DNA of 29,461 nt, from contig CAZJUB010000030.1 in NCBI GenBank assembly GCA_964549075.1, forward strand, positions 1 through 29,461, read 5' to 3'. Shown here piece by piece: positions 2,030 through 26,638 of the stretch. Each line of letters begins with the position of its first letter. The stretch's first letter is position 1. This stretch comes from an uncultured archaeon. Lineage in GTDB: Archaea; Asgardarchaeota; Heimdallarchaeia; Heimdallarchaeales; Heimdallarchaeaceae. The translations under genes and the position numbers were made by a program. The notes below the pieces were generated by a model. It searched no databases. It saw only the letters and a program-made list of their open reading frames with translations, and was not told the origin of the DNA.

Positions 2030-3283
2030 TTAGAAGAAACTGATTATCCAAATAATCAAGTAAAAAACAATAAGGATAACTCCAATAATACTAGGTATTT
2101 TTTTCCTTCCTTCTAATAATTTTACAGCTGATATATTTACTGCACCAAAGATGAACATGAAAATAATACTAGCTGCTAAAGCTACAATTTCTATATTAAA
2201 CGCTAAAACAAAAGCAATACTTAATATGCCTGAAATTGTAATCGCTCTGGCTGGAACCCTAGTTTTTGGATTGATTTTTGCCAAGGATTTAGGAATTATA
2301 CCTTCGTGTGAAAGCATGTAGGATAATCTAGAAGATCCAAGTAAAGTTGCGTTTATCGCTGATGCAGCAGACACAATAGCTGCAAAAACCATAATACCTA
2401 TACCAGCATTACCTAGAAATTTCGAAGCTGAAACAGATAAAATGACTTCTTTAAATTCTCCAACTCCTTGAGTGCCTAAAACTGCTATAGTCACTATTGC
2501 TACAGATACGTATAAGATAAGTACAATAATGATTGAAAGAAACATTCCTACAGGTAAATCTCTTTCAGGATTTTTCATCTCCTCTACAGAATTCGATAAT
2601 ATCTCAAAACCTTCCATAGATACAAAAATAAGGACAGAACTGGCAACTATTGGGAAAAATCCCTTATCAAAGAAACCTTCAAAATTTGATTTGTTAGCTG
2701 CTGTTATTCCTGCTATTATGTATACTACTAGGATAGTAACCTTAACTAAAACAAGTATATTCTGAGCTCTTGTAGATTCCTTAACTCCAATCAAATTTAA
2801 ACCAATAAAAAGAAGAACACTCAAGATTTGAAAGATAAAAGCACTAATCGAAATTGCATAAGAAGTACCTTGAAAGATTTCGAGTCCTGGTACAATTGGT
2901 ATAGCCTCTCCTAGATATCTACCAAAGGTCATTGCGTATAAACTAACTGAAAAACTATAGCCAAACCATAAAACAATACCTAAAGTTCCTGAAAGCCATT
3001 TCTTCTTGAAAGCTTCTTGTACATAAATAAAAGCTCCACCTGCTTTTGGATATTTTAGAGCTAGATGCACATAGCTGAAAGCTGTAAAAGAACTTACAAT
3101 TCCAGCAAGTAAAAAGGAAAGAAAAGCAGCAGGACCAGAATTGTTGATTACTAATCCAAGAACACTGAAAACACCTCCACCAATGAGAGCACCTACAGCA
3201 ATTCCAAGAGCTTCTTTTAATCCCAACTCTTTGGATAATTCTACTTCTACTTCATTGTTTCTGGAGGTATCGTTATCAGACAT
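2030..3283 (-). CDS. APC superfamily amino acid permease
   Basis: About 12 hydrophobic segments; GALIGGGVF (TM1), GPAA, YPKAGGAFIY, EEMKNPERDLP, SRLSYMLS and TRVP motifs. Confidence 0.92.
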   Translation of the reverse strand: MSDNDTSRNNEVEVELSKELGLKEALGIAVGALIGGGVFSVLGLVINNSGPAAFLSFLLAGIVSSFTAFSYVHLALKYPKAGGAFIYVQEAFKKKWLSGTLGIVLWFGYSFSVSLYAMTFGRYLGEAIPIVPGLEIFQGTSYAISISAFIFQILSVLLFIGLNLIGVKESTRAQNILVLVKVTILVVYIIAGITAANKSNFEGFFDKGFFPIVASSVLIFVSMEGFEILSNSVEEMKNPERDLPVGMFLSIIIVLILYVSVAIVTIAVLGTQGVGEFKEVILSVSASKFLGNAGIGIMVFAAIVSAASAINATLLGSSRLSYMLSHEGIIPKSLAKINPKTRVPARAITISGILSIAFVLAFNIEIVALAASIIFMFIFGAVNISAVKLLEGRKKIPSIIGVILIVFYLIIWIISFF

Positions 3284-3409
3284 TTTGACCCCACTGAATG
3301 AAGAAAAATCGGTAAAGAATTTAAGAATGTTTGGGTATTTTAATGAAATTGTCTTTGCTAATTCTGCCGTTAGAGGCCTTTAAAACAAAATATAGTGGAT
3401 TTTATACAT

Positions 3410-4327
3410 TTAGTAACGAGCTATCAAAAATACAATGAATAAAATGAATGTAAATATGAAAGTACCAATGTAAATCTGTCTATTCCATCCTGATATATAT
3501 CTTCCTGCATAAATTCCAAAAGGTAACAGCGAAAACAGTGTAAAAGTCAACATCAGCATTGGAGTATATCCAACTGCACTTAGGTATGGAATCCCGAATC
3601 CGTTACCAAACATTAAGATGACGATAATTGTACACCAGAAAAGAATCCATGCTATTCCTGAAAAAGCAATTATTCCTCTATTTTTGTGACTCGATCTTCC
3701 TTCTCTAAAAGTCAAAAAACCAGGAATAGCAAATATAGGTATGAAAATACTCAATATACCTAATAATATTCCCCAAATCCATAATACTATTCTAGGTCGC
3801 TCATTCTTTTGTTTTGCAATAATCATTTGTATTACAAAATAACCACCAAAAACGAAATTAATAGATCCAAGATTGATAAAAACTATATTCCAATCCATAG
3901 CAGAAATAGGTACTCCGTTATATAATGTAAGTTCAACAATAATATTGAGAGTTATGAAAATACTAAAAATACCTAATATAGTTAGTAGGTTAAAATAGTC
4001 GTTTCTGAAACCTGTAATGTTAAAAAAGGAAGACCTAGTTAGAAATCTGTCTTGAGGTTCAAGATAGACTGATTTTGTTTCTGTATCTCTTGGACCATAA
4101 ACTTTGTCACCACGATACTTCTTTTTTGTTTTTTTAGGTTTTTCTTCCTTAATTTTAGTTTGTGATATTTTTGATTTCCTATATTCTTCTGATTGATAAA
4201 TACCTATCATAGGACAATCGTGCTGTTCTGGAAGTCTGTGCTTTGAACAATACATTTGATTACATAATTTACATTTAAAAGGTAAGCTTTCTTCAGCATC
4301 ACAACCAGGAAATTCACAAGTTTTCAT
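3410..4327 (-). CDS. AN1-type zinc finger fused to degenerate M50 (site-2 protease-like) membrane domain
   Basis: CEFPGC...PFKCKLCNQMYCSKHRLPEQHDC is an AN1 finger. The membrane part has the M50-like layout (GIIAFSG; FSLLPFGIYAG) but no HExxH. Confidence 0.75.
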   Translation of the reverse strand: MKTCEFPGCDAEESLPFKCKLCNQMYCSKHRLPEQHDCPMIGIYQSEEYRKSKISQTKIKEEKPKKTKKKYRGDKVYGPRDTETKSVYLEPQDRFLTRSSFFNITGFRNDYFNLLTILGIFSIFITLNIIVELTLYNGVPISAMDWNIVFINLGSINFVFGGYFVIQMIIAKQKNERPRIVLWIWGILLGILSIFIPIFAIPGFLTFREGRSSHKNRGIIAFSGIAWILFWCTIIVILMFGNGFGIPYLSAVGYTPMLMLTFTLFSLLPFGIYAGRYISGWNRQIYIGTFIFTFILFIVFLIARY

Positions 4328-4364
4328 CTAATTCACGTGTTACTTTATCACTTAAAAAATTGTT

Positions 4365-5240
4365 CTATCTCATGTGATGTATACAAACTCCAGGTGTTAG
4401 CAACTTATCCCTGATTTTACTTGAAAGTGATTTAACCATAACTTTTTGCCAGAAATTAGTTTCCTTTGTTCTACCTATTATAACTAAATCTGGCTCATCT
4501 TTTTCGAAAATAGATTCAAGAGAAGACAGTACACCGTGTCCAATTATGAAGCGAGGTTGAATTATTTGTCCAAAAATTTTTGAAAACTCTCTTACATATT
4601 GGGTAAATTGCTTTTCTTCATTTTTGATGGTTTCTTCTTTAGCTGCTCCTATTAAAGGAACTGTTTCAGGAACTTGAGCAATATGATATACCCTCACTTT
4701 AGCATTCTTCTGTGGAGCTGCAATTGCTGATGCCCATCTAAGCAGAAAAGGGTCCCTATGAGAGTATGGTAAGAGTACTGCGATATCCTTTAATTGATTA
4801 GATGTTTTTTGCATGGTTGGAGGAAATATCTGTAAAACCTCTGTTTCTAAATGTGGTATAACTGCATTGGAAATGCTTTGAATAGTTATTTTATCAAATA
4901 AAGTAGGTCTTCTTCTTCCTGACATCAATACAAGGTTGTGTTTCTTTTCATTCCAATATTCAACTATTGCTTTCGGAATATGCTTAGATTTTCTGATAAT
5001 AAGGTCATGTTTAACTTCATACTTAGCTAGTTTCTCTAAAAATGCACTAACTTTATTCCCCGGATCGGTTCCAATGTGAAGTAAATCAAGATGTGAACCA
5101 TATTCATGAGCGATATAGAAAGCTAATTCTAAACCAGTACATTCAAATTGTTTACCACCAATGGGAACTAAGATTCTGTCAAGATTTAAGAAAAATTCAT
5201 CTTGGTAATCTGGATGAAGTTTAGAAGGTAGCTTAGTCAT
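4365..5240 (-). CDS. Tandem universal stress protein (USP) domain protein
   Basis: RILVPIGG...LDLLHI...LVLMSGRR, then a second repeat IAVLLP...VYHIAQVP...PDLVIIG; two USP folds. Confidence 0.8.
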   Translation of the reverse strand: MTKLPSKLHPDYQDEFFLNLDRILVPIGGKQFECTGLELAFYIAHEYGSHLDLLHIGTDPGNKVSAFLEKLAKYEVKHDLIIRKSKHIPKAIVEYWNEKKHNLVLMSGRRRPTLFDKITIQSISNAVIPHLETEVLQIFPPTMQKTSNQLKDIAVLLPYSHRDPFLLRWASAIAAPQKNAKVRVYHIAQVPETVPLIGAAKEETIKNEEKQFTQYVREFSKIFGQIIQPRFIIGHGVLSSLESIFEKDEPDLVIIGRTKETNFWQKVMVKSLSSKIRDKLLTPGVCIHHMR

Positions 5241-5314
5241 TCTGTTATTCGATAAACACCTTAATTCATCTAATATAAAGGTTCTTCTTCACTCAGAAGA
5301 ATTATAATAATAAT

Positions 5315-6319
5315 TTAGATGTTTTCACGAAGGTCGATAATGTCTTCAGCTGAAGGACCAGTACCAATGATTGACACTTTTGTTTTTGTAGCTTTTTCGA
5401 TGGAATCAATGAAATCTTCAACTTCACCTTTAATATGATCAACACTATTTGCTCTGCTTATCTGAGGATAAATTATATCAAGTTTGGTTAAAGCAATTTG
5501 AGTTGCACTATTAAGCCTGACAGATTTCTTAGCTAAGTTATAGTTGAAAGGAGCTGCTCTTCTAGGTCTTCCTGTCACTGCTCCATATTCTACCCAACCT
5601 CTCTTTTTGAGTTCTTCCAAAGAAAGTTCTCCAGGAAGTTCTCCAGTACCTACTCTAGTAACATATGCTTTGAAAACTACAATTACTTCATCTACTCTTT
5701 TTGGTCCAACTCCTATATCAGAGCATATTGCAGCTGCTGAAGTATCTTTAGAAGTAACATAAGGATAAGAACCATGGAAGAGTGAAAGGAAAATCGCTTG
5801 ACTTCCTTCAGCTTGAACAGTTTTCCCTTCATCTAAAGCATCATTAATCTCTACACTCACATCTGTTAGATAAGGTTCCAATTCTGGAATATCTCTTGCA
5901 ACCTTTAAAATCCTCATAGCTCTATCTTGATTGGCAGGGCCTGTCCCACTCCCTGTTGTTCCAATCTTTCCTTTAAGATGTGCATTTGAAGAATCAATCT
6001 CTCTGTGTTTTTCTTCAATAATTCCTGATTGATAATCAACACCGCATATAGAATTGGTCTCTTTCATCTCTTTAAACAAAACAATAGGGTCTACTAAAAC
6101 TCCAGCACCAATTAACAGTCGTGTGTCAGGATTAATAAAACCAGAAGGAACCATTCGAAGTTTATATTCTTTACCTTTGAATTGAATAGTGTGTCCAGCG
6201 TTTGTTCCCACACCAGCTCGAACAACAATTGAAGGATTATCTTTTAATGCTAAGTATGAAAGTACTTTTCCCTTTCCCTCATCACCAAAAAATCCACCGC
6301 AAATGACTGACAATGTCAT
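5315..6319 (-). CDS. purA: Adenylosuccinate synthetase (short archaeal type)
   Basis: GDEGKGK, NAGHT, IGTTGSG, EGSQ, YPYVTS, YVTRVG, TGRPRR, TKLD and IGTGP motifs; 334 aa. Confidence 0.97.
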   Translation of the reverse strand: MTLSVICGGFFGDEGKGKVLSYLALKDNPSIVVRAGVGTNAGHTIQFKGKEYKLRMVPSGFINPDTRLLIGAGVLVDPIVLFKEMKETNSICGVDYQSGIIEEKHREIDSSNAHLKGKIGTTGSGTGPANQDRAMRILKVARDIPELEPYLTDVSVEINDALDEGKTVQAEGSQAIFLSLFHGSYPYVTSKDTSAAAICSDIGVGPKRVDEVIVVFKAYVTRVGTGELPGELSLEELKKRGWVEYGAVTGRPRRAAPFNYNLAKKSVRLNSATQIALTKLDIIYPQISRANSVDHIKGEVEDFIDSIEKATKTKVSIIGTGPSAEDIIDLRENI

Positions 6320-6426: not shown

Positions 6427-7275
6427 ATGGAATCAGCTGTTCTTGAATTTGAATCAGATTATTTTACTCTTTTTAAGCTTCAAGAAGGCGTCTATGCTGC
6501 TATTGCCAAGAATACTTTTATTGCTGGAGCTAATGCAGGATTTTTTGATGTGGGAGATTATGTTATTTTGTATGATACTATGATGGCTCCTAAAGCAACA
6601 AAAGATCTACTGAAAGCTGTGCAGTTTACTTGTTCTAAAAAAATTGGCTTTGTAATAAATAGTCATTTTCACCATGATCATATCTGGGGGAATCATGCTA
6701 TCTCTCCATCTATTCCAATCATAAGTAGTTCTGATAATCTAAAAATGATGAAAGAACAAACATTGGAAGATCTACAAAAATTTCAAAAAGATGCAAGAAA
6801 AGAAATCAAAAAATTGGATGAACTTCTAAAAACTGAGACAGATCCATCAAAACTATTTGAAATAAACAACCATTTAGATTTCTATCTTACAATTTCTCAA
6901 CATAATTTTAATTTAAGAATAGCTGATGTTATCTTTAATAAACACCTGAAAATTTATGGTAGAAAGAGATCTGTTGAAATAATAGATATAGGAGCTGCTC
7001 ATTCAGTAAGTGATGTGATAGCATACTTACCAGATGATGAAACATGCTTTTTTGGAGATTTGTTGTTAGAAAATATTGATCCAAGCTTATTAGATAAGAC
7101 AACAGGAGTATCAGTTTCAGTAAATCCTAAGAACCAACTGAAAGTTCTTAGAACTTATTTTGAAAAAGATTTAAAATATGCCATACCGGGTCATGGAAAA
7201 TTAGCTCCTTCTAAGATTCTGTTTAAAACCAATATAGAATTTCTCAGATTGAAGTACCCAGATGCATTTTCTTGA
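6427..7275 (+). CDS. MBL-fold metallo-hydrolase (cyclase/glyoxalase II-like)
   Basis: ANAGF, SHFHHDHIWGN (HxHxDH), AHS, GD and IPGHG motifs. ATG 6427 is preferred over TTG 6379. Confidence 0.88.
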   Translation: MESAVLEFESDYFTLFKLQEGVYAAIAKNTFIAGANAGFFDVGDYVILYDTMMAPKATKDLLKAVQFTCSKKIGFVINSHFHHDHIWGNHAISPSIPIISSSDNLKMMKEQTLEDLQKFQKDARKEIKKLDELLKTETDPSKLFEINNHLDFYLTISQHNFNLRIADVIFNKHLKIYGRKRSVEIIDIGAAHSVSDVIAYLPDDETCFFGDLLLENIDPSLLDKTTGVSVSVNPKNQLKVLRTYFEKDLKYAIPGHGKLAPSKILFKTNIEFLRLKYPDAFS

Positions 7276-7327
7276 GGAAATCACAAAAACTCTTATAAAT
7301 TACCAATTTAAGTTCTAAAGAGTAAAG

Positions 7328-7891
7328 ATGTCTGTCTTTGGAACCGTAAAAATCGTGCTTCTTGGTGATTACGCTACAGGTAAAACCACTCTAAAACGAA
7401 GTTTTATGGGATTACACCTTGATGAAGTGTATATGAGTACACTAGGTGTGGATCTAGCTTCTCACAAACATGTAGATGAGGATATAGAAATTAACTTTCA
7501 AATCTGGGATCTCGGAGGGCAAAAAGAATATAGCAAACTAAGGAAGAAACAGTATGTAGGTTCTGAAGGTGGACTACTTGTTTTCGATAAAAGTAGACCT
7601 GAAACTTTTGCTAATTTAACGAAATGGTTAGAGGAGCTTAATAGTTCTTTAAAAACAAAAATACCCGTCTTTTTGTTGGGTAATAAAGACGATTTGATGG
7701 GAGTTGAACAGAATAAAATGCTTGATAATCAAGCTAGAGCATTTTTAGAAGAAGCAAAAGACAAATATAAATTTGTGAAATTGATTGACTACTTCTCCAC
7801 TTGTGCTTTAACAGGTTCAAATGTTAATGATGCTTTTCTCGATTTAGGAAGAATAATAATGCGAAAGAAAAGCGATGATATGAAGATATAA
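7328..7891 (+). CDS. Rab/Ras-like small GTPase
   Basis: G1 GDYATGKT, G2 STLGVD, G3 WDLGGQ, G4 GNKDD, G5 TCAL; LLVFD..RPETF..L.KW; no C-terminal prenylation cysteines. Confidence 0.93.
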   Translation: MSVFGTVKIVLLGDYATGKTTLKRSFMGLHLDEVYMSTLGVDLASHKHVDEDIEINFQIWDLGGQKEYSKLRKKQYVGSEGGLLVFDKSRPETFANLTKWLEELNSSLKTKIPVFLLGNKDDLMGVEQNKMLDNQARAFLEEAKDKYKFVKLIDYFSTCALTGSNVNDAFLDLGRIIMRKKSDDMKI

Positions 7892-7955
7892 CAAAAGGAA
7901 AGAATTAAAATACCTTCATAAATCAGAAAGGTAAGAAATATTTGAGAGATACATT

Positions 7956-8861
7956 ATGGCTACTCTATTTGGTGATTTTGGTCAGATATTGGCAATGCTA
8001 GGACCTGTACTCATTTTCATAGGTCTATATATCGGATTCTGGATTTGGGGAAAATTTGCAAACAAGAAGAAGAAAGAGCAGTATTTTGATGATGTTCTTA
8101 CTGCAATGGACCCTTATATTATGAATTATTCTAGAAAAGATCCAAATGATCGTCAAGTCGAAATTCGTTGCCAGATGAATGAAGATTTTCTTGTTACAAG
8201 TGCATCAGCTTGGCTTATACTTCTCCCTAGAACAAGTTTTCCAACAATGTTAGTAGACGGATTGTTCTTTAGAAATAAAGATTCTTTTGGATTAGCAGCT
8301 AATTTTCCAGAAAAACCAAGAGTACTATTTGAAGTGATTCCATATAAAATGAAATCAGCAATAAAGAAGGATTTTGATTATCTGATAGAAATTGATGATC
8401 TTTCAACTCCAAATGCAGATATCAACAATAAGTTTCTCATTAAATCTAATAGAGGTAGAGCTATAAATCAATTAATCAGAAGCAATTCTTTCATAAAAGC
8501 TCTTACAGAGTATTCTAAAGAATTGCAATGGATTTCTGTTAGAACCGATGAACCTCATTTCGAATTAAAATTCAACCTTACAAAGCAACCGGCAGATTTG
8601 CTAATTTTAACAAAATTTGCTATGACAGTTTTGAAATTCTTTGCAAAGGTAACTGAATCAACTAAAAGCTTGCCAATTCCAACAGTTCTAAAGAAAGAAG
8701 TGAAAAAGCTTTCAGAAAAAGAGCTCAAGAAACAAGAGAAACAAAAAGAAAAGCAGATGGAAGAAAGAGAGAAAAGGAGAGAAAGAGCTCGAAAAGCTGA
8801 AGAAAAAAGAGCTAAAAAACGAACAAAAGAAGAAGAAAAAGCACGAAGAAAAGCTAAATAG
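7956..8861 (+). CDS. Probable CCDC47 (DUF1682, PAT complex subunit) homolog
   Basis: Single N-terminal TM ending WGKFANKK, then a globular domain with collinear resemblance to CCDC47 as recalled, then a long Lys/Glu/Arg coiled-coil tail. Confidence 0.6.
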   Translation: [301 protein letters not shown]

Positions 8862-9007
8862 AGATCGTTTTTCTCTTTTTATTTATTCAAAAAAAATTTA
8901 TAAATATGGATAGAATAAAGTATCTTGAACATTATAATTATATTTCAATTATCATATCAACTATAACATCTATTGCTATTGCCATTAAACACTCAAAGTT
9001 GGTAAAT

Positions 9008-9862
9008 ATGTCAGAGAATAAACTGAAAATAATAGTTGATAGTACTTGTGATTTACCTAAATATTTAGTAGAAAAATATGATATTGATGTTGTTCCTGTT
9101 TATATACAATATAAAGATAAGATTTTAGCTGATGGCGTTGATATAACAATTGAGGAATATTATAAGCTACTCAGAGAAGTAAAGGAATTACCTACTACCT
9201 CTGCACCAAATCCTAGGGATTTCCTTGAAAGGATAAATAAGGCATTGAAAGATTATACTTCTGTTTTCATAATTACCCTTACTTCTAAGCTTTCTACGAC
9301 TTATCAATCAGCTAAGATAGCAGCTAAAAGAATAAAAAACACTCATATTCATTTATTAGATTCAAAATTTGGCTCAGGTGTATTAAGTTTTACTGCATTA
9401 GCAGCTGCCAAACTCTCTCAAAAAGGAGTTCCAGAAGAGGAAATTGTTAAAAAAGTTGAACAATTACGGGATGAATCCTTATTACTTGGTTATGTCGAAA
9501 CACTAGAGAATTTCAAGAAATCCGGAAGAATTTCCAATCTTAAGTTCTGGATAGGCGCTGTTACAAAAGCGAAACCTCTTCTTGAATTGAGAGATGGTAT
9601 TATCCAAGCTTGCGGTAAAGCAACAGGTAAAATTAAAGCACAGAAAAAAGTGATTGCAGAAGTTCTTAGAAGAGTAAAGAAGGACCAACAGTACGATATT
9701 ATGATTACTCATGGAGATGATCCTGAAGCTGCTGAATATCTGATGAAGCAATTCGAGAAAAAGATTAATTTAGGTGAAAAAATCATAAACTATCTAACAC
9801 CTGCTCTAGCGACACATTTAGGTATAGGTACAGTTGTTATTTCACTTTCTCCCAGTATTTGA
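9008..9862 (+). CDS. DegV/FakB family fatty-acid-binding protein
   Basis: KIIVDSTCDLP, PTTSAP, SKLSTTY, LDSK, LENFKKSGRI, KPLL and HLGIG motifs. ATG 9008 is preferred over 8906. Confidence 0.92.
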   Translation: MSENKLKIIVDSTCDLPKYLVEKYDIDVVPVYIQYKDKILADGVDITIEEYYKLLREVKELPTTSAPNPRDFLERINKALKDYTSVFIITLTSKLSTTYQSAKIAAKRIKNTHIHLLDSKFGSGVLSFTALAAAKLSQKGVPEEEIVKKVEQLRDESLLLGYVETLENFKKSGRISNLKFWIGAVTKAKPLLELRDGIIQACGKATGKIKAQKKVIAEVLRRVKKDQQYDIMITHGDDPEAAEYLMKQFEKKINLGEKIINYLTPALATHLGIGTVVISLSPSI

Positions 9863-9866
9863 GCTA

Positions 9867-11405
9867 CTAGATTTCCTTTGGTCTAAAAGATAGAGCTTTC
9901 TCTATAGCAGGATAGATGAAATTAGGTATATCCGAAGCTATCAAACCATCTCCATAGCTTTGTGCTGCTATCTCTCCTGCAGCTCCTGATATATACGCTC
10001 CTATTGATGCAGCAATAATTGGATCATCTATAACAGAGAATAAAGATCCTACAATTCCTGTTAAAACATCCCCAGTTCCTCCTACTGTCATCCCTGGGTG
10101 ACCAGTTTTATTTAATTTAGTTATCTTACCATTTGAGATAATATCTATTTTACCTTTAACTAGAATCGTTGTTTCCCATTTTTTAGCAGTTTCAGAAATT
10201 ATTTTAGTATCAGTTTCTATCTCTCCAGTTAATTTCTCTTTGAAAATTTTATAAAATTCTCCTTTGTGTGGAGTCAAGATTGTATCATGAAATTGCAAAA
10301 GAAATAGATGGTCTTTCTCCATTATACTTAAAGCACCTGCATCAATGACAATACGTTTTCTTTCTTTCATTTTTAGAAACTCATGCAATGCATCTTTTGT
10401 TGTTTCAGTATTCATAGTCCCAGGACCTATTACATAACAAGAATTTTCTAATTGAGGAAGCTCAAGAATCTTTTGAATATCAACAGGTTCAATTTCATCT
10501 TTGTGTGCTGGGATTGTAATAAAATCAGGAGCGAAAGAAGCAACTGTATAGCGAATATTTTCAGGAGTTAGTATCAAAACTAAATCACAACCTGTCCTGA
10601 AAGCTCCTAGACCTGATAATGCTGGAGCACCAATATAATCTTTTGAACCTGCAATAATCGTTACAACACCATTTTGTCTCTTGTGACTATCAGCGTTTCT
10701 TTTAGGAAAGTACCATTTTAGGTCCCCTATTCCTATGTATTTCTCGCAATCTTCAGGTATACCTATATCCCTTACAACAATCTCAGAATCCTCAAAATGA
10801 TCTTTTTGAATTTTATTCCTACCTAAACAAACGATTTTCTTTGGTTTTTTGACTATGAGAGGATTTTCTTTTGTAGGATTATATCCTGAAGGTATATCTA
10901 GCGACACAATATCCCCTTTCCAAGCGTCATTGAGAAATTCGATTACAGTCTTGTAGGGCTCTCTAATCATACCTTCAATCCCAATTCCAAAAATTGCATC
11001 AACTAAAATGTAGCTATTGTCATATTTTTGAAGAATTTCAAAAGTTTGATCAGATTTGTCAATCCTATACCAATTAATATTTAGTTCTTGTGCAAGTTTG
11101 TAATTCTTCTGTGAGGCTAAAGAGTTGAAATTTTCTTTTCCTCCAATTAGAACTATATCACACTGAAAGTCTAGCTTTGAAAGATATCTAGCCGCAACTA
11201 GAGAATCTCCACCGTTATTACCAAAACCGCTAAGAAAAACTATTTTCTTCTTGTTTGTCTGTTTAGCTAATTTTTGTATTTCTTCCGAGACTACTTTTCC
11301 AGCTGTTTCCATTAGTTCATAAATTGTAACTCCAGTTGCGAAGACATTATCTTCCAAAGCTCTAGTCATTTTAATATTATACACTTGGTTTGGAAAGAAA
11401 TTCAT
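9867..11405 (-). CDS. nnr: Bifunctional NAD(P)H-hydrate epimerase/dehydratase (YjeF N+C)
   Basis: LMETAG, GFGNNGGD, DAIFGIG, SLDIPSG; HK..NG, IAGS..YIGA, GPG, IDAGAL, LTPHKGEF and GGTGDVL motifs. Confidence 0.95.
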   Translation of the reverse strand: MNFFPNQVYNIKMTRALEDNVFATGVTIYELMETAGKVVSEEIQKLAKQTNKKKIVFLSGFGNNGGDSLVAARYLSKLDFQCDIVLIGGKENFNSLASQKNYKLAQELNINWYRIDKSDQTFEILQKYDNSYILVDAIFGIGIEGMIREPYKTVIEFLNDAWKGDIVSLDIPSGYNPTKENPLIVKKPKKIVCLGRNKIQKDHFEDSEIVVRDIGIPEDCEKYIGIGDLKWYFPKRNADSHKRQNGVVTIIAGSKDYIGAPALSGLGAFRTGCDLVLILTPENIRYTVASFAPDFITIPAHKDEIEPVDIQKILELPQLENSCYVIGPGTMNTETTKDALHEFLKMKERKRIVIDAGALSIMEKDHLFLLQFHDTILTPHKGEFYKIFKEKLTGEIETDTKIISETAKKWETTILVKGKIDIISNGKITKLNKTGHPGMTVGGTGDVLTGIVGSLFSVIDDPIIAASIGAYISGAAGEIAAQSYGDGLIASDIPNFIYPAIEKALSFRPKEI

Positions 11406-12266: not shown

Positions 12267-13274
12267 ATGATGCCTTTCTCTGAACTATCTAATGACGTCA
12301 AGGGAAAGGTTCTTAGTTTACAATTATTTATCTCTCAATGTGCTGTTTTAGCTCATAATCTCCTTTATGCTAACGAAAATAAACCTGGAGGAGCTTCTTT
12401 CAGTAAAGAATTTGTTGATACTACAACAGAACATTTTCTTGCTGGAGCTAGTAGTTTATTTGCACCTATTTTTGGTTTAGCAAAAAGAGGTATTCTTGTT
12501 GCTGATAATCATCTCTGGTATGAAGATGCTGAAATTGGTTTTTTTATTGAGAAAGCTCTTGAAAAATCAAAAACTTGGTATAAATCAAACGGAAATACCA
12601 TTTTAGGTACTTTACTTATGTTCTCCCCGATAACACTAGGAATAGCAAATAGTTTTGCAACTGAAGGGATGAAAACCAACACAAAACTAAACCTAGACAA
12701 TGTAATCTATATTACTGATCAATTTATAAAAAATTCAACAACAGAAGATTGTATATATCTAACAGAAGCTCTCAACAAAACTGTATCGAAGAATATACTT
12801 CCATCAGATAAAGAGGAGGATAATTTTAATTCATTTTTAGAGATTCACAAACATGAAAAAACCAATCTTTATGAATTCACTACATTCTATAAAGATAGGG
12901 ATTTAGTCTTTTATGAACTATCTCATAAATATCAAATTACATTGAAAATTGGTTTTACTACTTTTCTTAGATCTTATGAAGAAGACCAAAATTTCAGAAC
13001 TGCAATTACACAGACCTATATCACTTTAATGTCTGAAAAGAAAGATACTCACATTGCAAAACGATTTGGAAATGAGATTGCTTCGAAAGTAAATCAACAA
13101 GCAAAAGAAATAATCAAAGCTGGAGGAGTATTTACAGAGGATGGTCAAGCAATGATTAAAGAATTAGATTTGTATTTGAGAACCTCAAATGGTAGAATAA
13201 TAAATCCTGGGACTGCTGCAGATATTACAGCTACTACGATTTTTCTAGCACTAATTCAAGGTTATCGTCCTTAA
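12267..13274 (+). CDS. CitG-family (triphosphoribosyl-dephospho-CoA synthase-like) protein, archaeal type
   Basis: KPG, NTILGTLL, DTHIAKRFG and INPGTAADITA motifs. Confidence 0.8.
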   Translation: MMPFSELSNDVKGKVLSLQLFISQCAVLAHNLLYANENKPGGASFSKEFVDTTTEHFLAGASSLFAPIFGLAKRGILVADNHLWYEDAEIGFFIEKALEKSKTWYKSNGNTILGTLLMFSPITLGIANSFATEGMKTNTKLNLDNVIYITDQFIKNSTTEDCIYLTEALNKTVSKNILPSDKEEDNFNSFLEIHKHEKTNLYEFTTFYKDRDLVFYELSHKYQITLKIGFTTFLRSYEEDQNFRTAITQTYITLMSEKKDTHIAKRFGNEIASKVNQQAKEIIKAGGVFTEDGQAMIKELDLYLRTSNGRIINPGTAADITATTIFLALIQGYRP

Positions 13275-14307
13275 GTGAAACTTCAACTTCAAACATTTTT
13301 TTAGTTCTTTTTAGTAATTCTGGAATAGTTATTTGGTCATATTCCATAATAATTGTTCTATTGACTAGTTTTACATAAACAAAACACCTATTTGCTAAAC
13401 AAAGAATCTGGAGATGAACTGGAGTATTAAAAAGATATTGAAAACCCTTTTCAGCTGCTTTAAATAAATCTGAAATTGTTTCATATTCATCGCTAATATT
13501 TGAGTTATTTGTGAGAGAAATATAGTCTTTGTTGAAAATATCTATCCTTGATGGTTTGTAGGTTGTTTTAAAAATATCAAGTAATTGTTGAGCTGTTTTT
13601 GTCTTAAACTGTCGGTATCTTCTAATCTCAAACTCGCTTATTTTTGATTCTAATACGAAAAATACATGTGGTAGAACAATTGTCTGTATTGAATTTCCTA
13701 AATGAGTAATATGGAAACATGTTCCTTTTGAACAATTTGTAAGTTTTTCTGATACTTTTCTGAAACTTTTTCCAAGTATCTGATAGATTGTAAAACTATC
13801 GATATTGTAATTTGGGGCGTTGGCATGGACTATAAGGGGATCATTTTCTTTAGAAAAAAGACACCAAGCTCGCAATTCTTTCCCTTCTTTATCTTCCATT
13901 AAAGAGTCAGCAATTTCTATCCCGCATTGTAGAAGTATATTCTTACATTGAATTTGAAATTCCTGAAAAAGACTTACATTTCCAACGAATTCCTTTATTT
14001 CTTTGTGATAAGTTTCAATAAATCTATTTGAGACAAGGTTCCCAACATACTCAGCGTAATCTGCAGGCATTTCATCATCAATCTGAAATATGAAAATAAG
14101 TGATTCTCTTGTTGATATGAGAAATTGACTCTCTTCTAATAACAATCTTGAAAGCTTATCTTTCTCTGTTTCTTCAACAAACCTAAGAATAGCTGTTAAT
14201 AGACCTGAAACTAGAACCTCATCTCCTCTAGCAAATTCTTGAAAATCAAATAATGGAACTCCATGTTCAGTTATTATCATGATTCGTTTAATTAGCATAA
14301 GTTTCAA
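13234..14307 (-). CDS. Multi-domain longin protein (longin plus two further longin/roadblock-like domains)
   Basis: N-terminus IMIITEHGVPLF...DEVLVSGLLTAILRFVEE is a typical longin (Mon1/Fuzzy/Asgard type). Two further beta-hairpin/helix/strand units follow. Start is TTG 14307 or ATG 14298. Confidence 0.7.
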   Translation of the reverse strand: MKLMLIKRIMIITEHGVPLFDFQEFARGDEVLVSGLLTAILRFVEETEKDKLSRLLLEESQFLISTRESLIFIFQIDDEMPADYAEYVGNLVSNRFIETYHKEIKEFVGNVSLFQEFQIQCKNILLQCGIEIADSLMEDKEGKELRAWCLFSKENDPLIVHANAPNYNIDSFTIYQILGKSFRKVSEKLTNCSKGTCFHITHLGNSIQTIVLPHVFFVLESKISEFEIRRYRQFKTKTAQQLLDIFKTTYKPSRIDIFNKDYISLTNNSNISDEYETISDLFKAAEKGFQYLFNTPVHLQILCLANRCFVYVKLVNRTIIMEYDQITIPELLKRTKKMFEVEVSLKDDNLELVLEKS

Positions 14308-15182
14308 CTCTCAACTTTGAACACTTGCAAGCTATCTTTTATCTCTTCTTGAGTAGGTTTATCGCTTGGTACTTTTTGTTTCAGTATTATTGAATAGATT
14401 CTTTCCGATAGATTCTTTTCTTTCTGTAAATTGATTATTTCTTTATGAAAGTCATAATTATAATGAAATAAAGATAATAAATAATTATCCAAACACCCAT
14501 GTTGCAATAGAACGGAGAAATTTGAAGATCCAATTTGCTTTTTTTCCATCTCTTGTGGTAATGTAAAATTCAATTTTTTGCTTATAAGGCGTATCAATCT
14601 ACTAAGAAAGTCTGAATTTTTTGAATTGAAGATTTCTGGAGAACTAAAAACAATAAATCTACCACGCCTTTTGTAAGCTGCTACCACTACTGGTTCATCG
14701 TCCATCAAAGCTAGAGGAATAAATTCCTTTATTCCATTTTCCTTTATGATTTTTCTATCACTTTCAGTATTAATAATATGTGCCTTGGTAATTGTTAGAT
14801 TTGAACCAATCAATCTAGTTTCAACTGGAATCTTGGGTAAACCATAAACATATTCAGATTGAAAAGATATGCCTATTTCTTTTCTAAATTCTTCAAAAAA
14901 TCTTCCTAAATCTGTCCATGGAGGAGAAGGGAGTGTTAATATTAAGCATCCTCCTATATCTATATAGGATATTAAGTCGATATACTGTTCTTGTGTAACC
15001 TTTTTACGTGGTAAGCTAATAAACAGAACATGAGATTTTTCCAATATCTCCCTATCTAAACCTGGACCTCTCTTCTTTACAATATTGATTTTTACTTGAG
15101 CAATTTCGGGATTAATTGCTCCTGCTATTAGTTTAGCTTTCACTTCTTCATTAAGAGATGTATCAATAGAGCAAAGTTTCAT
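14304..15182 (-). CDS. GIFT-domain (GldG/IFT52-like, class I GATase-like fold) cytosolic protein
   Basis: LEKSHVLFISLPRKKVTQEQYIDLISYIDIGGCLIL...IGISF and PVVVAA...GRFIVFSSPEIF resemble the GIFT/IFT52 pattern; no signal peptide or TM. Confidence 0.6.
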   Translation of the reverse strand: MKLCSIDTSLNEEVKAKLIAGAINPEIAQVKINIVKKRGPGLDREILEKSHVLFISLPRKKVTQEQYIDLISYIDIGGCLILTLPSPPWTDLGRFFEEFRKEIGISFQSEYVYGLPKIPVETRLIGSNLTITKAHIINTESDRKIIKENGIKEFIPLALMDDEPVVVAAYKRRGRFIVFSSPEIFNSKNSDFLSRLIRLISKKLNFTLPQEMEKKQIGSSNFSVLLQHGCLDNYLLSLFHYNYDFHKEIINLQKEKNLSERIYSIILKQKVPSDKPTQEEIKDSLQVFKVES

Positions 15183-15236
15183 CTATCTATGTGTGGATTT
15201 AGATTCATATAAGTTTATTGAGAAAGGAAAAGCACT

Positions 15237-16331
15237 TTATTCTTCACTTTCTTCAGATTTGATAATTCTCCTTAAATCCCTGCGTAATTTTCTCGCAGCA
15301 TTGTTTTCAGGAGTGTATTTTAAAGATTTTGTGACTTCAGAATAAGCTTCTTTGTTTTTGTCTTTTGATTTAAGAGCATAAGCACTTAATAGATGCGCTC
15401 GAGATATCATATGAGGAACATTCATCTGTTTTTCTTCAGTCTCAGCTAAAACTTGACCTGTATATTTCAGAACTTTGTCATAATCGCCCTTCTTGGTGTA
15501 TAATATAGCTAATTTTGATAAAATAGCCACATTTAATGGATCTTTGTCAATATATTCGTTAAGTAGAGTTATACACTTATCATCAAGTTCCATGGCTTCG
15601 TAATAATCTATAGCTTTTAAGAGAATACTTGGATCTTTTATCTTTTCAAACTTCATCGTTTTGTTGAAAACAAAGAAGTACAAAACAGCTCCTCCAATAA
15701 AAGCTGGAATCTGCATCACTAAGAGAACGATTTTATGTGCAAGAATAGGTACTGAAAATAATGATATAATCGGCTCAATTGACAATCCTATTGCTAGAAG
15801 ACCTGTAATTATGATAAAAATATAAAATCTTGGTCCAAAGAGTATATCTCTCCTTTTACTCTTAAATGTCCATTCATCCTCTTCATCTAGTTTGACTAAT
15901 AACTCCAAAGTATCTGATACAATAACATTCCCGGCAAATTCGATTAACATTAATACAAAAACAGCAAAGAAGTGGAATATTAAAGCGATAACAGCATCAT
16001 TTTCGAATAACGAGACATAACCGAATAAAATTAAAGAATATTCAATGATTATTGCAATAAGCTGATAGTTTCTAATTATTTTGATAGGCAACATGAAGAT
16101 GTTTCTCTTATAATGAATTTGCTTAGGTAACGGTCTTCTCCTAAACCTTACTAATCCCCATCCTACGATAAATAGAACAATTACTAAGAAAGAGATCCAG
16201 ACAATATTTGCTTCTGCTCGAACATCTGTGAAAGCTAGTACGAATATAACTGTTCCAAGTATTAGCATTACCAAGTCTTCGATAGACAAAGCCATATTTT
16301 CATCTGATTTGTAGACATTTTGCATAATCAT
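15237..16331 (-). CDS. Polytopic membrane protein with C-terminal TPR repeats
   Basis: About 6 hydrophobic helices followed by TPR-like DPLNVAILSKLAILYTKKGDYDKV and A...LKYTPENNAA. Start is uncertain (ATG 16331 or a downstream ATG). Confidence 0.75.
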   Translation of the reverse strand: MIMQNVYKSDENMALSIEDLVMLILGTVIFVLAFTDVRAEANIVWISFLVIVLFIVGWGLVRFRRRPLPKQIHYKRNIFMLPIKIIRNYQLIAIIIEYSLILFGYVSLFENDAVIALIFHFFAVFVLMLIEFAGNVIVSDTLELLVKLDEEDEWTFKSKRRDILFGPRFYIFIIITGLLAIGLSIEPIISLFSVPILAHKIVLLVMQIPAFIGGAVLYFFVFNKTMKFEKIKDPSILLKAIDYYEAMELDDKCITLLNEYIDKDPLNVAILSKLAILYTKKGDYDKVLKYTGQVLAETEEKQMNVPHMISRAHLLSAYALKSKDKNKEAYSEVTKSLKYTPENNAARKLRRDLRRIIKSEESEE

Positions 16332-19815: not shown

Positions 19816-20211
19816 ATGAGTATTATGGCTAAGATGAAACCAATCAAATGTAAATGCGGAAATACATGGATGCCTCATGAAGTTCCAACCAATAAAGAAT
19901 GGAATATGATCTCACCAATGCCTGATAAGGATGGTAATGTAACCATAACCATAATGGCAACTTGGACCTGTCCTAAATGTGGAAAAAGCAAAACTGGTGC
20001 CAAAGGTAAAACTAAAGGCGAATTTAAGGAAGAAGAAACTCCGAAATATAAGATTGAAACAGCAATTTCTTCAGGAAAGGAATTTAGTATATCTAAGTTA
20101 GCTGAAGAAACTGGATTTGATATCGAAAATATCAAGAAAATTATCCCTATGTACATGAAAAAGAAAAACATCAAAGGCAAAATCCAAGGAGATAAGTTTA
20201 TTCCACAATAA
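19816..20211 (+). CDS. Zinc-finger protein with C-terminal winged-helix (PCI-like) domain
   Basis: CKCG...CPKCG; C-terminus FSISKLAEETGFDIENIKKII...NIKGKIQGDKFI resembles a PCI winged helix. Confidence 0.65.
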   Translation: MSIMAKMKPIKCKCGNTWMPHEVPTNKEWNMISPMPDKDGNVTITIMATWTCPKCGKSKTGAKGKTKGEFKEEETPKYKIETAISSGKEFSISKLAEETGFDIENIKKIIPMYMKKKNIKGKIQGDKFIPQ

Positions 20212-20275
20212 GACCAAATGGCAAAGATTTTTAAACGTATAATAAAATCTCGCACAAAGAACAGAAGGTATCACA

Positions 20276-20500
20276 ATGGCTTACGCAGCTTACAAGGGAA
20301 TGTTGTTTGGTGGATGGTTAACATTCGTACTAGTATTATTTATCGTATTATCTATAATAGCTATAGTTTGGTTTGTTCTTTACGTAGAGATGTCTCAAAG
20401 AAAGAATTGGAAAATGGTTACTTTAATTATCGTTATCAACAGCTTACTTGTTGCTTTTGCGATTCAACTAATTCTATTAAAAGTAAATGTGATATTCTAA
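20276..20500 (+). CDS. OST5/TMEM258-like small two-TM protein (oligosaccharyltransferase accessory subunit)
   Basis: 74 aa, two TM helices; WFVLY...SLLVAFAIQLILLKVNVIF parallels TMEM258 WFFVY...SLFMGFGVLFLLLWVGIYV (recalled), including the C-terminal end position. Confidence 0.7.
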   Translation: MAYAAYKGMLFGGWLTFVLVLFIVLSIIAIVWFVLYVEMSQRKNWKMVTLIIVINSLLVAFAIQLILLKVNVIF

Positions 20501-20579
20501 TCGCTCTTAATATTTTTCTGCTTTTCTACGCCTTTACTTCACTATTCTCTTAAGAAATTATACAAAAGTTAAATAACCA

Positions 20580-26538: not shown

Positions 26539-26638
26539 AGACAATATAAATTCTACTTTCATTTGAGAACTACAACAAGAATTAAATTTGATAAAAGATT
26601 TTTATATTTATAACAGTTCCAACTACAAGGTGCAAGAA

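Follow-up and report, generated by a model that had tools for sequence, protein, structure and literature searches.

CCDC47, a ribosome-binding part of the eukaryotic machinery that builds membrane proteins, belongs to Pfam family PF07946 (formerly DUF1682) and takes part in the PAT complex as well as in the multipass and SND3 translocons. To our knowledge, the multipass-translocon layer is regarded as eukaryotic, save for its Oxa1-family insertase. According to two reports (PMC7505659, PMC12572126), CCDC47 has a membrane helix; its globular cytosolic domain contacts the ribosome, and its C-terminal coiled coil, which is conserved and positively charged, is wedged between Sec61 and rRNA. The signal peptide and the acidic lumenal domain of the eukaryotic protein lie outside the Pfam CCDC47 domain. 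A second described system with a bearing on the locus reported here is trehalose monomycolate transport factor A (TtfA; PDB 6T84) of mycobacteria, in which, according to PMC6593404, residues 2-24 form a membrane helix, the conserved domain reaches as far as residue 205 or so and the C-terminus is disordered.

Published discussions of Asgard archaea cover homologues of Sec61, OST and TRAP (section 10 of Eme et al. 2023; PMC11186639). CCDC47-like proteins of Asgard archaea are already known in catalogues: NCBI names relatives of the protein described below "DUF1682 domain-containing protein," and Supplementary Data S3 of a 2026 paper (PMC12962969) contains two Asgard groups, cog.009255 and cog.009962, whose best SwissProt structural match is bovine CCDC47 (Q3ZC50), marking them as ESPs with credit to Liu et al. 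2021. The original prediction for this locus, which proposed an archaeal CCDC47 homologue acting as a PAT-like chaperone, had left undecided whether such a protein had been reported; these catalogue entries show that it had, while no main-text discussion of Asgard CCDC47 relatives was found in the searchable literature. Nor do the four supplementary files of Eme et al. 2023 or the nine of PMC12222021 mention CCDC47, DUF1682 or PF07946. Since the homology is already catalogued, the value of the finding lies in testing function.

A conserved gene of Heimdallarchaeia

We analyzed a stretch of 29,461 nucleotides (hereafter, the window) from the genome of a Heimdallarchaeial archaeon, the host of the CCDC47-like gene. 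The open reading frame lies exactly at the predicted coordinates (Table 1), and it is a real, conserved gene. Its product has 32 close relatives with 64-100% identity, which, where named, are assigned to Heimdallarchaeota or Heimdallarchaeaceae. A survey of distribution across Asgard lineages, as proposed at the outset, was carried out with a family profile on 400 Asgard genomes: the family was found in 112 of them, among which are nearly all members of the class Heimdallarchaeia, and further carriers are labeled by their sources as Hodarchaeales, Jordarchaeaceae and Hermodarchaeota. The same search found no member in the largest Asgard family sampled (0/135), so the protein is not essential for archaeal membrane-protein biogenesis.

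Table 1. Features of the CCDC47-like locus, in window coordinates
Feature	Coordinates	Strand	Basis or details
Ras-family small GTPase gene, 64 bases upstream of the CCDC47-like gene	7328..7891	+	PF00071, E 4.8e-33
CCDC47-like (DUF1682/PF07946) gene	7956..8861	+	ATG-initiated ORF; 301 aa plus TAG stop
Predicted N-terminal transmembrane helix, residues ~11-32	7986..8051	+	Kyte-Doolittle; positive-inside rule; model
Predicted globular alpha/beta domain on the cytoplasmic side, residues 55-235, with a fold like that of CCDC47 and TtfA	8118..8660	+	Model strands and helices; VIA-align; Pfam
Sequence block best conserved in the close family, [29 protein letters not shown] at residues ~89-117	8220..8306	+	Alignments A1 and A3
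Linker, residues 236-253, low model confidence	8661..8714	+	pLDDT <50 at 248-252; no secondary structure at 236-253
Predicted C-terminal K/E/R-rich helix, residues 254-300 followed by K301, strongly basic	8715..8858	+	AF2 model helix
T-rich intergenic stretch after the stop codon, possible archaeal oligo-T terminator	8862..8905	+	Sequence read directly; terminator inferred

Predicted topology and domain layout

The protein has a single hydrophobic segment, with a best Kyte-Doolittle window of 2.19 at residues 11-29, followed by the basic stretch KFANKKKKE. The flank on the N-terminal side carries a net charge of -1 and the 15 residues after the segment a net charge of +4, and the same pattern, a hydrophobic segment with a positive flank behind it, was seen in 38 of 42 family sequences. 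From the positive-inside rule, we infer that the short acidic N-terminal end lies outside and that the KFANKKKKE flank and the remainder of the protein, i.e., its bulk, are cytoplasmic. Since the membrane helix begins at about residue 10, there is no room for an N-terminal acidic domain, and the absence of the lumenal acidic domain had been predicted correctly.

In the AF2 model (mean pLDDT 78.2), a single helix spans residues 2-54 and leads into the globular domain. The block most conserved in the close family has invariant columns in the close-family alignment A1, retains near-invariant G, R, P and P columns in alignment A3 and includes R92, which is near-invariant in the wide alignment; it overlaps the stretch that the model predicts with the lowest confidence (pLDDT 51 and 55 for the 10-residue blocks covering 91-110). 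The tail after residue 235 comprises 66 residues, of which 29 are K or R and 14 are D or E (net charge +15), and 47 of these residues form the predicted tail helix. In other Asgard lineages, tails are mostly short and basic or missing, with net charges of +6 to +15 where present. The layout of a hydrophobic N-terminus, a globular part and a basic K/E/R-rich tail was thus found as predicted.

Sequence profiles link the protein to CCDC47

To assess the relationship with CCDC47 quantitatively, we compared the protein with the Pfam models. PF07946 was the sole family at E<=1, scoring 36.7 bits (E 3.6e-9) against a gathering cut-off of 27.7, with residues 18-299 aligned to positions 8-316 of the 326 in the profile. 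When the tail was removed, residues 1-235 still matched (22.5 bits, E 7.3e-5), while the match of the globular residues 45-235 alone was marginal (13.7 bits, E 0.036). Loss of the tail therefore costs about 14 bits and loss of residues 1-44 about 9 bits, i.e., the score of this protein is above the cut-off only with its low-complexity tail and membrane helix. Two Asgard relatives that have no K/E tail scored 37.9 and 38.5 bits, and their globular domains alone scored 23.7 and 27.7 bits, with E values of 3.1e-5 and 1.8e-6.

The link extends across the family. Among 33 distant members scanned, 20 matched PF07946 at E<=0.1, and it was the top family in 19 of these, the exception being P0052, in which DUF3137 scores higher; some relatives pass the cut-off with profile positions 9-49 alone aligned. 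Over whole Asgard genomes, PF07946 gave matches at E<=0.01 in 40/400 and above the cut-off in 13/400, compared to none in 14 control genomes. Direct sequence searches did not reach the eukaryotic protein. No CCDC47 chain was found among PDB sequences at E<=10, either by phmmer with the window protein and two high-scoring relatives or with the archaeal profiles A1 and A2; the PDB sequences that these searches did return were rejected as tail-driven or chance matches. A search of 1.84 billion representatives with profile A1 yielded 24 matches of 159-302 aa, none of them of eukaryotic length, and no eukaryotic protein was present among the 41 matches of a word-indexed A2 search (E<=10). NCBIfam gave nothing meaningful for the four proteins scanned.

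The predicted fold matches CCDC47 in ribosome-translocon complexes

When the AF2 model was compared with the PDB using Foldseek, exactly three chains were retrieved at E<=0.001, namely 7tm3_4, 9i78_4 and 6w6l_7 (E 3.1e-8 to 2.2e-5), separated from the next match by an E-value gap of at least 100-fold. All three come from ribosome-translocon entries (7TM3, 9I78 and 6W6L), and in the available descriptions of these complexes CCDC47 is the sole component named for all three that is neither Sec61 nor ribosomal. The 371 residues of 9i78_4 fit this assignment, since the methods text of PMC12572126 gives residues 76-447 as those modeled for Chaetomium thermophilum CCDC47.

Alignment with VIA-align gave Z scores of 16.8 for 7tm3_4, 14.8 for 9i78_4 and 11.2 for 6w6l_7 (model residues 33-233), at identities of 12-14%. 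The 7tm3_4 alignment covers 227 residues at 3.9 A, pairing model residues 11-246 with chain residues 135-411, and places the membrane helix of the model on the membrane-helix region of the chain, with the aligned chain residues running from 135. Over the whole length, model residues 14-301 correspond to residues 76-418 of 9i78_4 with an rmsd of 15.2 A; by position, the basic tail falls on the part of the fungal protein that holds the connecting helix and the first latch helix. The alignment stops at chain residue 418, and the second latch helix and the tunnel-inserting end are not evident in the model. The collinear correspondence with CCDC47 that had first been drawn by eye is therefore borne out at the level of both profile and structure, and the homology claim itself withstood removal of the tail as well as structural comparison of the globular domain. 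Together, these results make it very probable that the membrane helix, alpha/beta domain and basic helix represent a remote but genuine homologue of the part of CCDC47 that extends from the membrane to the C-terminus.

Probable kinship with TtfA and DUF3137

The fold is not exclusive to CCDC47. TtfA (6t84) aligned with model residues 40-239 over 161 of 178 residues with a Z score of 11.8, and is thus about as similar as CCDC47 over the globular domain, which makes a wider prokaryotic superfamily likely. No TtfA chain was found among PDB sequences at E<=10 with profiles A1 and A2, and our literature search found no paper naming both TtfA and CCDC47. In the ESM Atlas, the nearest clusters include unnamed ones from Chloroflexota and Methanobacteriota (0.85-0.92), followed by TtfA (0.80-0.83), CCDC47 (0.79) and DUF3137 (0.78-0.79), every named look-alike scoring below 0.9 and so serving as a lead only. 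A ciliate CCDC47 cluster in the same resource has proteins of just 334 aa, so having a signal peptide and an acidic lumenal domain may not be a defining trait of the family. DUF3137 (PF11335) was not matched by the window protein at E<=1; it was matched by 3 of the 33 distant archaeal members, once above the cut-off, and one matching member, labeled Bathyarchaeia by its source, scored 31.7 bits over the same region that matches CCDC47. That both models match one region suggests that the two Pfam families are related.

These findings bear on an alternative in which the protein belongs to a wider, mostly prokaryotic superfamily (TtfA, DUF3137, CCDC47 and unnamed archaeal and bacterial clusters), whose members combine an anchor at the N-terminus with a TtfA-like alpha/beta domain and an extension at the C-terminus, and serves as an accessory or scaffold of another membrane machine, such as a transporter, envelope or lipid system, as TtfA does with MmpL3, so that it shares domain ancestry with CCDC47 but not function. 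The TtfA match and the identical layout of TtfA (PMC6593404), the DUF3137 matches, the order of the ESM Atlas clusters and, as described below, the failure to find Asterix or translocon synteny all speak for this explanation. Against it, CCDC47 is the only curated family matched by the window protein and by most of its relatives, the two best structural matches are CCDC47 chains whose alignments include the membrane helix and the helix leaving the domain, and the basic C-terminal tails fit nucleic-acid binding better than a disordered linker. We therefore regard this alternative as rather unlikely, and a single-pass CCDC47 homologue acting at the translocon as the reading to prefer.

Translocon partners in Asgard genomes

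We then asked which partners of CCDC47 are encoded alongside it. Asterix/WDR83OS (PF03669) was not detected above the cut-off in any of 400 Asgard genomes, and only 1/400 had a match at E<=0.001; the PF03669 model could miss a very divergent small membrane protein. The best match in the window's own genome (16.4 bits, cut-off 22.7) was a 130-aa multi-pass ORF beside a lipoyl-synthase-like gene, and it was judged to be due to chance because similarly weak matches occurred in 4 of the 14 control genomes. With Asterix undetected in 400 Asgard genomes, a PAT complex as known from eukaryotes is not supported for the archaeal protein, and the proposed PAT-like chaperone, for which the gene neighborhood offers no translocon link either, could not be upheld.

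The search for other partners, among them GEL and BOS parts of the multipass translocon, had a mixed outcome. In the window's genome, a SecY gene is present, and so is an EMC3/TMCO1-family (DUF106) gene scoring 75.8 bits, which encodes the Oxa1-family insertase Ylp1; DUF106 was also found in three euryarchaeal controls (M. jannaschii, H. volcanii and M. acetivorans). The EMC6/OPTI family gave a weak full-length match (20.9 bits, cut-off 23.3), and the TMEM147 model matched nothing in Asgard and control genomes alike, which makes that search uninformative.

Small GTPase genes adjoin the locus

No translocon gene was a conserved neighbor of the CCDC47-like gene across the loci compared, the single exception being a SecY gene ~2 kb away at one weak-scoring locus (L053). 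The neighbor that does recur is a small GTPase gene. In the same GTDB family as the window (Heimdallarchaeaceae), 11 of the 12 loci with a visible upstream flank have a Ras-family GTPase gene immediately upstream on the same strand. In another family of this class, the higher-scoring paralogue is adjoined in 4/4 loci by two Arf-family GTPase genes in convergent orientation to it, and in a third, a Ras-family GTPase gene is found three genes upstream. In other families, the gene is flanked by a KaiC-like ATPase gene or by unrelated genes.

This arrangement raises the possibility that the protein is a membrane platform for the adjoining Ras- or Arf-family GTPase, recruiting it or being regulated by it, with any link to protein insertion being secondary. 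With only 26 small-GTPase matches in the 3.2 Mb of the window's genome, chance alone is unlikely to account for such genes recurring beside the locus. However, the loci of one family are kin and hence not independent, the arrangement varies between families and is missing in others, and no GTPase-binding fold (roadblock or longin) was among the structural matches, so that we consider such a role improbable.

Discussion

The weakest explanation, that the likeness to CCDC47 arose by chance or convergence, with a membrane helix and a K/E-rich helix combining with a common alpha/beta sandwich to mimic both model and fold, is highly improbable: it can draw on the way in which the PF07946 score is split between helix, globular part and tail, on the relatives that pass the cut-off with profile positions 9-49 alone and on a resemblance of the fold to type III secretion chaperones (Z ~7), but it is contradicted by the globular-domain matches of the tail-less relatives, by the control genomes, by three independent CCDC47 chains topping the Foldseek results with a wide E-value gap and by an independent published structural screen with the same best match (PMC12962969).

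On balance, we favor the explanation that the gene encodes a single-pass CCDC47 homologue acting at the ribosome-SecYEG complex. By this account, the archaeal protein would dock close to the exit tunnel of the large ribosomal subunit, binding rRNA and ribosomal proteins through its globular domain and basic tail. Its neighbors there would be SecYEG and the Oxa1-family insertase Ylp1/DUF106, which the genome also encodes, and it may help the cotranslational insertion of membrane proteins. Of the two parts of this account, the homology is the firmer. Docking on the ribosome and SecYEG and an aid to membrane-protein insertion, both by homology, are put forward tentatively, and it is by analogy with eukaryotic CCDC47 that we infer binding to the ribosome or SecY and any chaperone or gating role. 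More speculative still, and in our view unlikely, is a broader proposal in which the protein would serve as the subunit that docks on the ribosome in an archaeal "proto-multipass translocon" with SecYEG and Ylp1 at the plasma membrane. This translocon layer would then be older than the ER, and the protein itself would derive from a pan-prokaryotic superfamily of single-pass factors accessory to membrane machines (TtfA, DUF3137) and possibly be controlled by small GTPases in Heimdallarchaeia.

If the homologue is genuine, one ribosome-binding subunit of the translocon would originate before eukaryogenesis. The structural kinship with mycobacterial TtfA hints, in addition, at a more ancient protein family whose members assist membrane machines.

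Comparison with known systems

The type III secretion chaperone-like alpha/beta proteins (Spa15, DR_1245 and 2PLG) share the general globular arrangement at Z scores of 6.8-8.1, a range that, for this tool, may reflect a common arrangement alone, and, unlike the archaeal protein, they are small soluble proteins with neither membrane anchor nor tail.

TtfA (PMC6593404) resembles the archaeal protein in that a membrane helix at the N-terminus is followed by a globular domain with this fold and by a nonconserved C-terminal extension. In contrast to the archaeal protein, it is actinobacterial and works with the lipid transporter MmpL3, and it ends in a disordered C-terminus instead of the basic helix predicted for the archaeal tail.

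Eukaryotic CCDC47 differs in possessing a signal peptide and an acidic lumenal domain, both missing from the archaeal protein, and in having Asterix as a partner, which is not detectable in Asgard genomes. It also has two latch helices and a tunnel-inserting end, according to PMC12572126, where the archaeal protein has one long predicted tail helix. Conversely, the two proteins agree in the order of their parts, with a single membrane helix preceding a globular alpha/beta domain in the cytosol and a basic C-terminal helix (predicted in the archaeal case), and with the bulk of the protein cytoplasmic (probably so in the archaeal case). The archaeal protein presents a simple tail-plus-domain version of CCDC47 that is useful for biochemistry.

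Sequence similarity to CCDC47

The reading frame at 7956..8861 (+), with its ATG start and 301 aa, was placed exactly by the original prediction, as the ORF listing confirmed. It encodes a conserved single-pass protein that combines a domain of the CCDC47 type with a basic tail. The hydrophobic N-terminal stretch (best 19-residue Kyte-Doolittle window 2.19, residues 11-29) is followed by KFANKKKKE, and the 66 residues past position 235 include 29 K/R and 14 D/E (net charge +15); by the positive-inside rule, domain and tail would both be cytoplasmic. A protein search returned 32 close relatives (264-314 aa, 64-100% identity), whose named sources were Heimdallarchaeota or Heimdallarchaeaceae MAGs, and a precomputed PF07946 (CCDC47) match was present in 18 of them. 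The gene is therefore a conserved one, and the most conserved block of the close family spans residues ~89-117 (window 8220-8306).

When we scanned the protein against Pfam, PF07946 was the sole family at E<=1 (E 3.6e-9; 36.7 bits vs a cut-off of 27.7); the alignment pairs residues 18-299 with positions 8-316 of the 326 in the profile. The original prediction had proposed masking the low-complexity tail, and this gave a divided result: residues 1-235 retained E 7.3e-5, but their 22.5 bits fell below the cut-off. Residues 45-235 gave E 0.036 (13.7 bits), and residues 1-44 alone gave no CCDC47 match in the Pfam scan. Three modest contributions, the tail's among them, thus add up to the above-cut-off score.

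We then turned to the wider family. A profile of close homologues (A1) retrieved 24 proteins among 1.84 billion representatives, 23 of them outside the window's close group and mostly without the long K/E tail (tail length none to 37 residues). PF07946 matched 20 of 33 distant family members at E<=0.1 and 5 over the cut-off. Two tail-less relatives scored 37.9 and 38.5 bits, and with the membrane helix also cut off they gave 23.7 bits (E 3.1e-5) and 27.7 bits (E 1.8e-6), respectively. Across genomes, PF07946 was found in 40/400 Asgard genomes at E<=0.01 and in 13/400 over the cut-off, compared to 0/14 control genomes. Since these family-wide matches include tail-less relatives, the concern over the low-complexity tail is removed. 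No CCDC47 chain among PDB sequences was reached at E<=10 with archaeal profiles or single sequences, and neither of the two large sequence searches, with A1 and with the archaeal profile A2, led to a eukaryotic protein. The sequence link is therefore one-way: a Pfam model built from eukaryotic sequences finds the archaeal proteins, and not the reverse.

Structural similarity to CCDC47 and TtfA

We modeled the protein with AlphaFold2 using 19 homologues as input (mean pLDDT 78.2, pTM 0.66). Within the globular domain, model confidence is lowest at residues 91-110 (pLDDT 51-55); this stretch overlaps the most conserved block, which might act as a binding loop or dip into the membrane. Foldseek against the PDB at E<=0.001 returned exactly three chains, 7tm3_4 (3.1e-8), 9i78_4 (1.4e-6) and 6w6l_7 (2.2e-5), with TtfA (6t84, E 6.7e-3) as the fourth match.

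VIA-align comparison of the model with PDB chains
Chain	Z	Aligned	Rmsd (A)	Model residues	Chain residues
7tm3_4	16.8	227	3.9	11-246	135-411
9i78_4	14.8	256	15.2	14-301	76-418
6t84 (TtfA)	11.8	161	4.3	40-239	27-204
6w6l_7	11.2	187	3.9	33-233	157-397

Lower matches were 2plg (Z 8.1) and type III secretion chaperone-like proteins (Z ~7). The structure matches carried entry titles, not chain names, and the identity of the top three chains was deduced by two arguments: the 371 residues of 9i78_4 fit the modelled span of C. thermophilum CCDC47 (residues 76-447; PMC12572126), and besides Sec61 and the ribosome, CCDC47 is the sole component named for all three complexes in the available portions of the papers. 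The AlphaFold and Foldseek comparison suggested at the outset thus gave CCDC47 for all three top chains. The modeled fold matches CCDC47 strongly, membrane helix included, while for the predicted globular domain alone TtfA is about as close. With PF07946 over its cut-off and CCDC47 chains as the best fold matches, the homology first proposed from the sequence held up, and we regard it as very probable.

Distribution

An Asgard-wide survey, also proposed originally, detected the gene in 112/400 genomes of the phylum (profile A2, E<=1e-5). By coded GTDB family, genomes with the gene in the window's class numbered 25/30 (f1), 1/1 (f2), 3/3 (f3), 8/12 (f4), 22/22 (f5, often in two copies), 2/2 (f6) and 11/12 (f7); outside it, they numbered 5/5 (f13), 6/6 (f14), 7/7 (f24), 4/5 (f28), 1/19 (f12), 0/14 (f19) and 0/135 (f20, the largest family). 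Single absences mean little because many genomes are incomplete; the absence from f20 is a genuine one. Among the source labels carried by cluster members are Heimdallarchaeota, Hodarchaeota/Hodarchaeales, Hermodarchaeota, Jordarchaeaceae and, in one case, Bathyarchaeia. Of 42 sequences, 38 have just one hydrophobic segment at the N-terminus, followed by the more positive flank, and the other four look N-terminally truncated. The long K/E-rich helix was confined to close Heimdallarchaeaceae-type sequences (all 6 in alignment A2); tails in other lineages are short and basic (net +6 to +15), or missing.

Gene neighborhood and translocon partners

In gene content the contig is unremarkable archaeal chromosome: it encodes alkaline phosphatase, an amino-acid permease, adenylosuccinate synthetase, a YjeF/Nnr-type protein and pyruvate:ferredoxin oxidoreductase subunits, among others. 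ORFs of 357, 292, 364, 131, 111, 301, 396 and 350 aa had no Pfam family at E<=1e-5, and the first group of these adjoins the gene of a DEAD-box helicase of 867 aa that has DUF5814 at its C-terminus.

Positions of features in the protein, the window and related loci
Feature	Position	Strand	Remark
Membrane helix and stalk, single long helix	residues 2-54		AlphaFold2 model
Mixed alpha/beta domain	residues 55-235		AlphaFold2 model
Linker, low confidence	between alpha/beta domain and tail helix		AlphaFold2 model
C-terminal helix	residues 254-300		AlphaFold2 model
Ras-family GTPase gene	7328-7891	+	window; upstream of CCDC47-like gene
DegV ORF	8906-9862	+	window
YjeF/Nnr gene	9867-11405		window
Pfam-less ORFs	13234-16331	-	window; no Pfam E<=1e-5
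DEAD-box helicase	16385-18988		window
Pfam-less ORFs	19816-21485	+	window; no Pfam E<=1e-5
Pfam-less ORFs	25348-27640	+	window; no Pfam E<=1e-5
Ras-family gene directly upstream			L005, L007-L010, L014, L018, L026, L027, L029 and window
Two convergent Arf-family genes			L015, L041, L054, L055
KaiC-like ATPase gene	2178-2876	-	L002
KaiC-like ATPase gene	4871-5548	+	L040
KaiC-like ATPase gene	3225-3887	+	L043
SecY gene	G000:C2:54218-55387		L039; window's genome
DUF106/Ylp1 gene	G000:C2:57374-58081		L033; window's genome
EMC6/Rab5ip-family match	G000:C40:13620-13862	-	L037; 178-aa frame
CCDC47-like gene	3956-4693	-	L053; family profile E 5.5e-13
SecY gene	6836-8263	+	L053

Of the 12 loci in the window's GTDB family whose flank is visible, 11 have a Ras-family GTPase gene immediately upstream, on the same strand. 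Two Arf-family GTPase genes, which also cross-match the SR-beta model, converge on the CCDC47-like gene in f5, at all four loci of the better-scoring copy, and in a third family of the class a Ras-family gene lies three genes upstream (L052). Small GTPase genes thus stand beside the gene in three families in three different arrangements. This repeated adjacency is the only recurrent neighborhood signal, in a genome with 26 small-GTPase genes.

Downstream, a DegV gene follows at 11 of 13 loci of the window's GTDB family. In the window its listed start lies ~34 codons upstream of that of its relatives (near M-x-x-x-K-M-K-I-I-V-D-S), and the true start is probably an internal ATG. The interval from the stop codon of the CCDC47-like gene to this ORF contains a T-rich stretch and a TTTATAAAT element. 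The gene adjoining the CCDC47-like one in f4 and f7 encodes a KaiC-like ATPase (~220-235 aa; PF06745 E 1.7e-8 to 5.1e-24), and a YjeF/Nnr gene is close by, as in the window.

Among possible partners, Asterix, which pairs with CCDC47 in the PAT complex, was over the cut-off in 0/400 genomes of the phylum. Its best match in the window's own genome (16.4 bits, below cut-off; similar in 4/14 control genomes) was an unrelated-looking 130-aa membrane ORF, which we rejected. With this partner undetected, the original description as a PAT-like chaperone is not supported as worded. The TMEM147 model found no match in the genomes scanned, controls being equally silent. An EMC6/Rab5ip-family (PF07019) match was weak (20.9 bits vs a cut-off of 23.3) but full-length (positions 2-81 of 81), and weak matches also occurred in 5/14 control genomes. 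The same genome encodes SecY and the EMC3/TMCO1-family insertase DUF106/Ylp1 ~2 kb apart on another contig. Together, the neighborhood and partner findings provide no tie between the CCDC47-like gene and the translocon. As a single case, SecY lies ~2 kb from the CCDC47-like gene at L053 (G296:C11), in a distant, weak-scoring lineage.

Prior record

The homology to CCDC47 is already catalogued. Two of the 32 close relatives bear the NCBI name "DUF1682 domain-containing protein," and in PMC12962969 (Nat Microbiol 2026), Supplementary Data S3 gives bovine CCDC47 (Q3ZC50) as the best SwissProt structural hit of Asgard groups cog.009255 and cog.009962, with class "ESP," category "Poorly characterized" and "Liu et al, 2021" in the last column. 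The main text of that paper lacks the terms translocon, Sec61 and multipass. Our literature search found no paper with CCDC47 and Asgard together and, within the partial texts retrieved, none describing an archaeal CCDC47; DUF1682, PF07946 and IPR012879 led to plant papers only, and among the matches listed for the PAT complex in Heimdallarchaeal literature, the subject was TRAP. In Eme et al. 2023, the translocon-linked ESPs treated in section 10 are OST and TRAP alone, and four of that paper's supplementary files contain no CCDC47, DUF1682 or PF07946. No main-text discussion of Asgard CCDC47 homologues was found in the literature searched. The family is thus already listed as an Asgard ESP, and the point of value is its putative function, which can be tested.

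Proposed function

The eukaryotic CCDC47 globular domain contacts eL6 and rRNA H25. The latch helices of CCDC47 limit access to Sec61, leaving the work to an Oxa1-type or SND3 insertase (PMC12572126). From homology, we tentatively propose, at somewhat less than even odds, that the archaeal globular domain and basic helix would dock on the large ribosomal subunit adjacent to SecYEG, and that the protein would coordinate SecYEG with Ylp1.

The main rival, a TtfA-like accessory role at some other membrane machine, seems unlikely, although it draws on the closeness of the globular domain to TtfA. 

Several links point to a wider superfamily. TtfA has a membrane helix (residues 2-24), conservation to ~residue 205 and a disordered C-terminus, and its partner is the lipid transporter MmpL3 (PMC6593404). 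DUF3137 matched 3 of 33 distant archaeal family members, including P0052 (source label Bathyarchaeia), in which DUF3137 (31.7 bits, residues 101-195) and CCDC47 (26.8 bits, residues 7-185) overlap. This double match suggests kinship between the two Pfam families and a family range that extends past Asgard archaea. The ESM Atlas look-alikes were unnamed clusters of Heimdallarchaeota, Chloroflexota and Methanobacteriota, followed by TtfA (0.80-0.83), a CCDC47 cluster from ciliates (0.79) and DUF3137 (0.78-0.79); the named ones are leads only, since their scores are below 0.9. No paper naming both TtfA and CCDC47 was found in the literature search.

All these proteins would belong to one old family in which an N-terminal anchor precedes an alpha/beta domain facing the cytoplasm, with CCDC47 as the eukaryotic branch. 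The Asgard proteins would be the closest prokaryotic branch at the sequence level, as judged among Pfam models, a set that does not include TtfA. TtfA and the window protein have the anchor-domain-tail layout in common, and over the globular domain TtfA matches the model at a Z of 11.8, compared to 11.2-16.8 for the CCDC47 chains.
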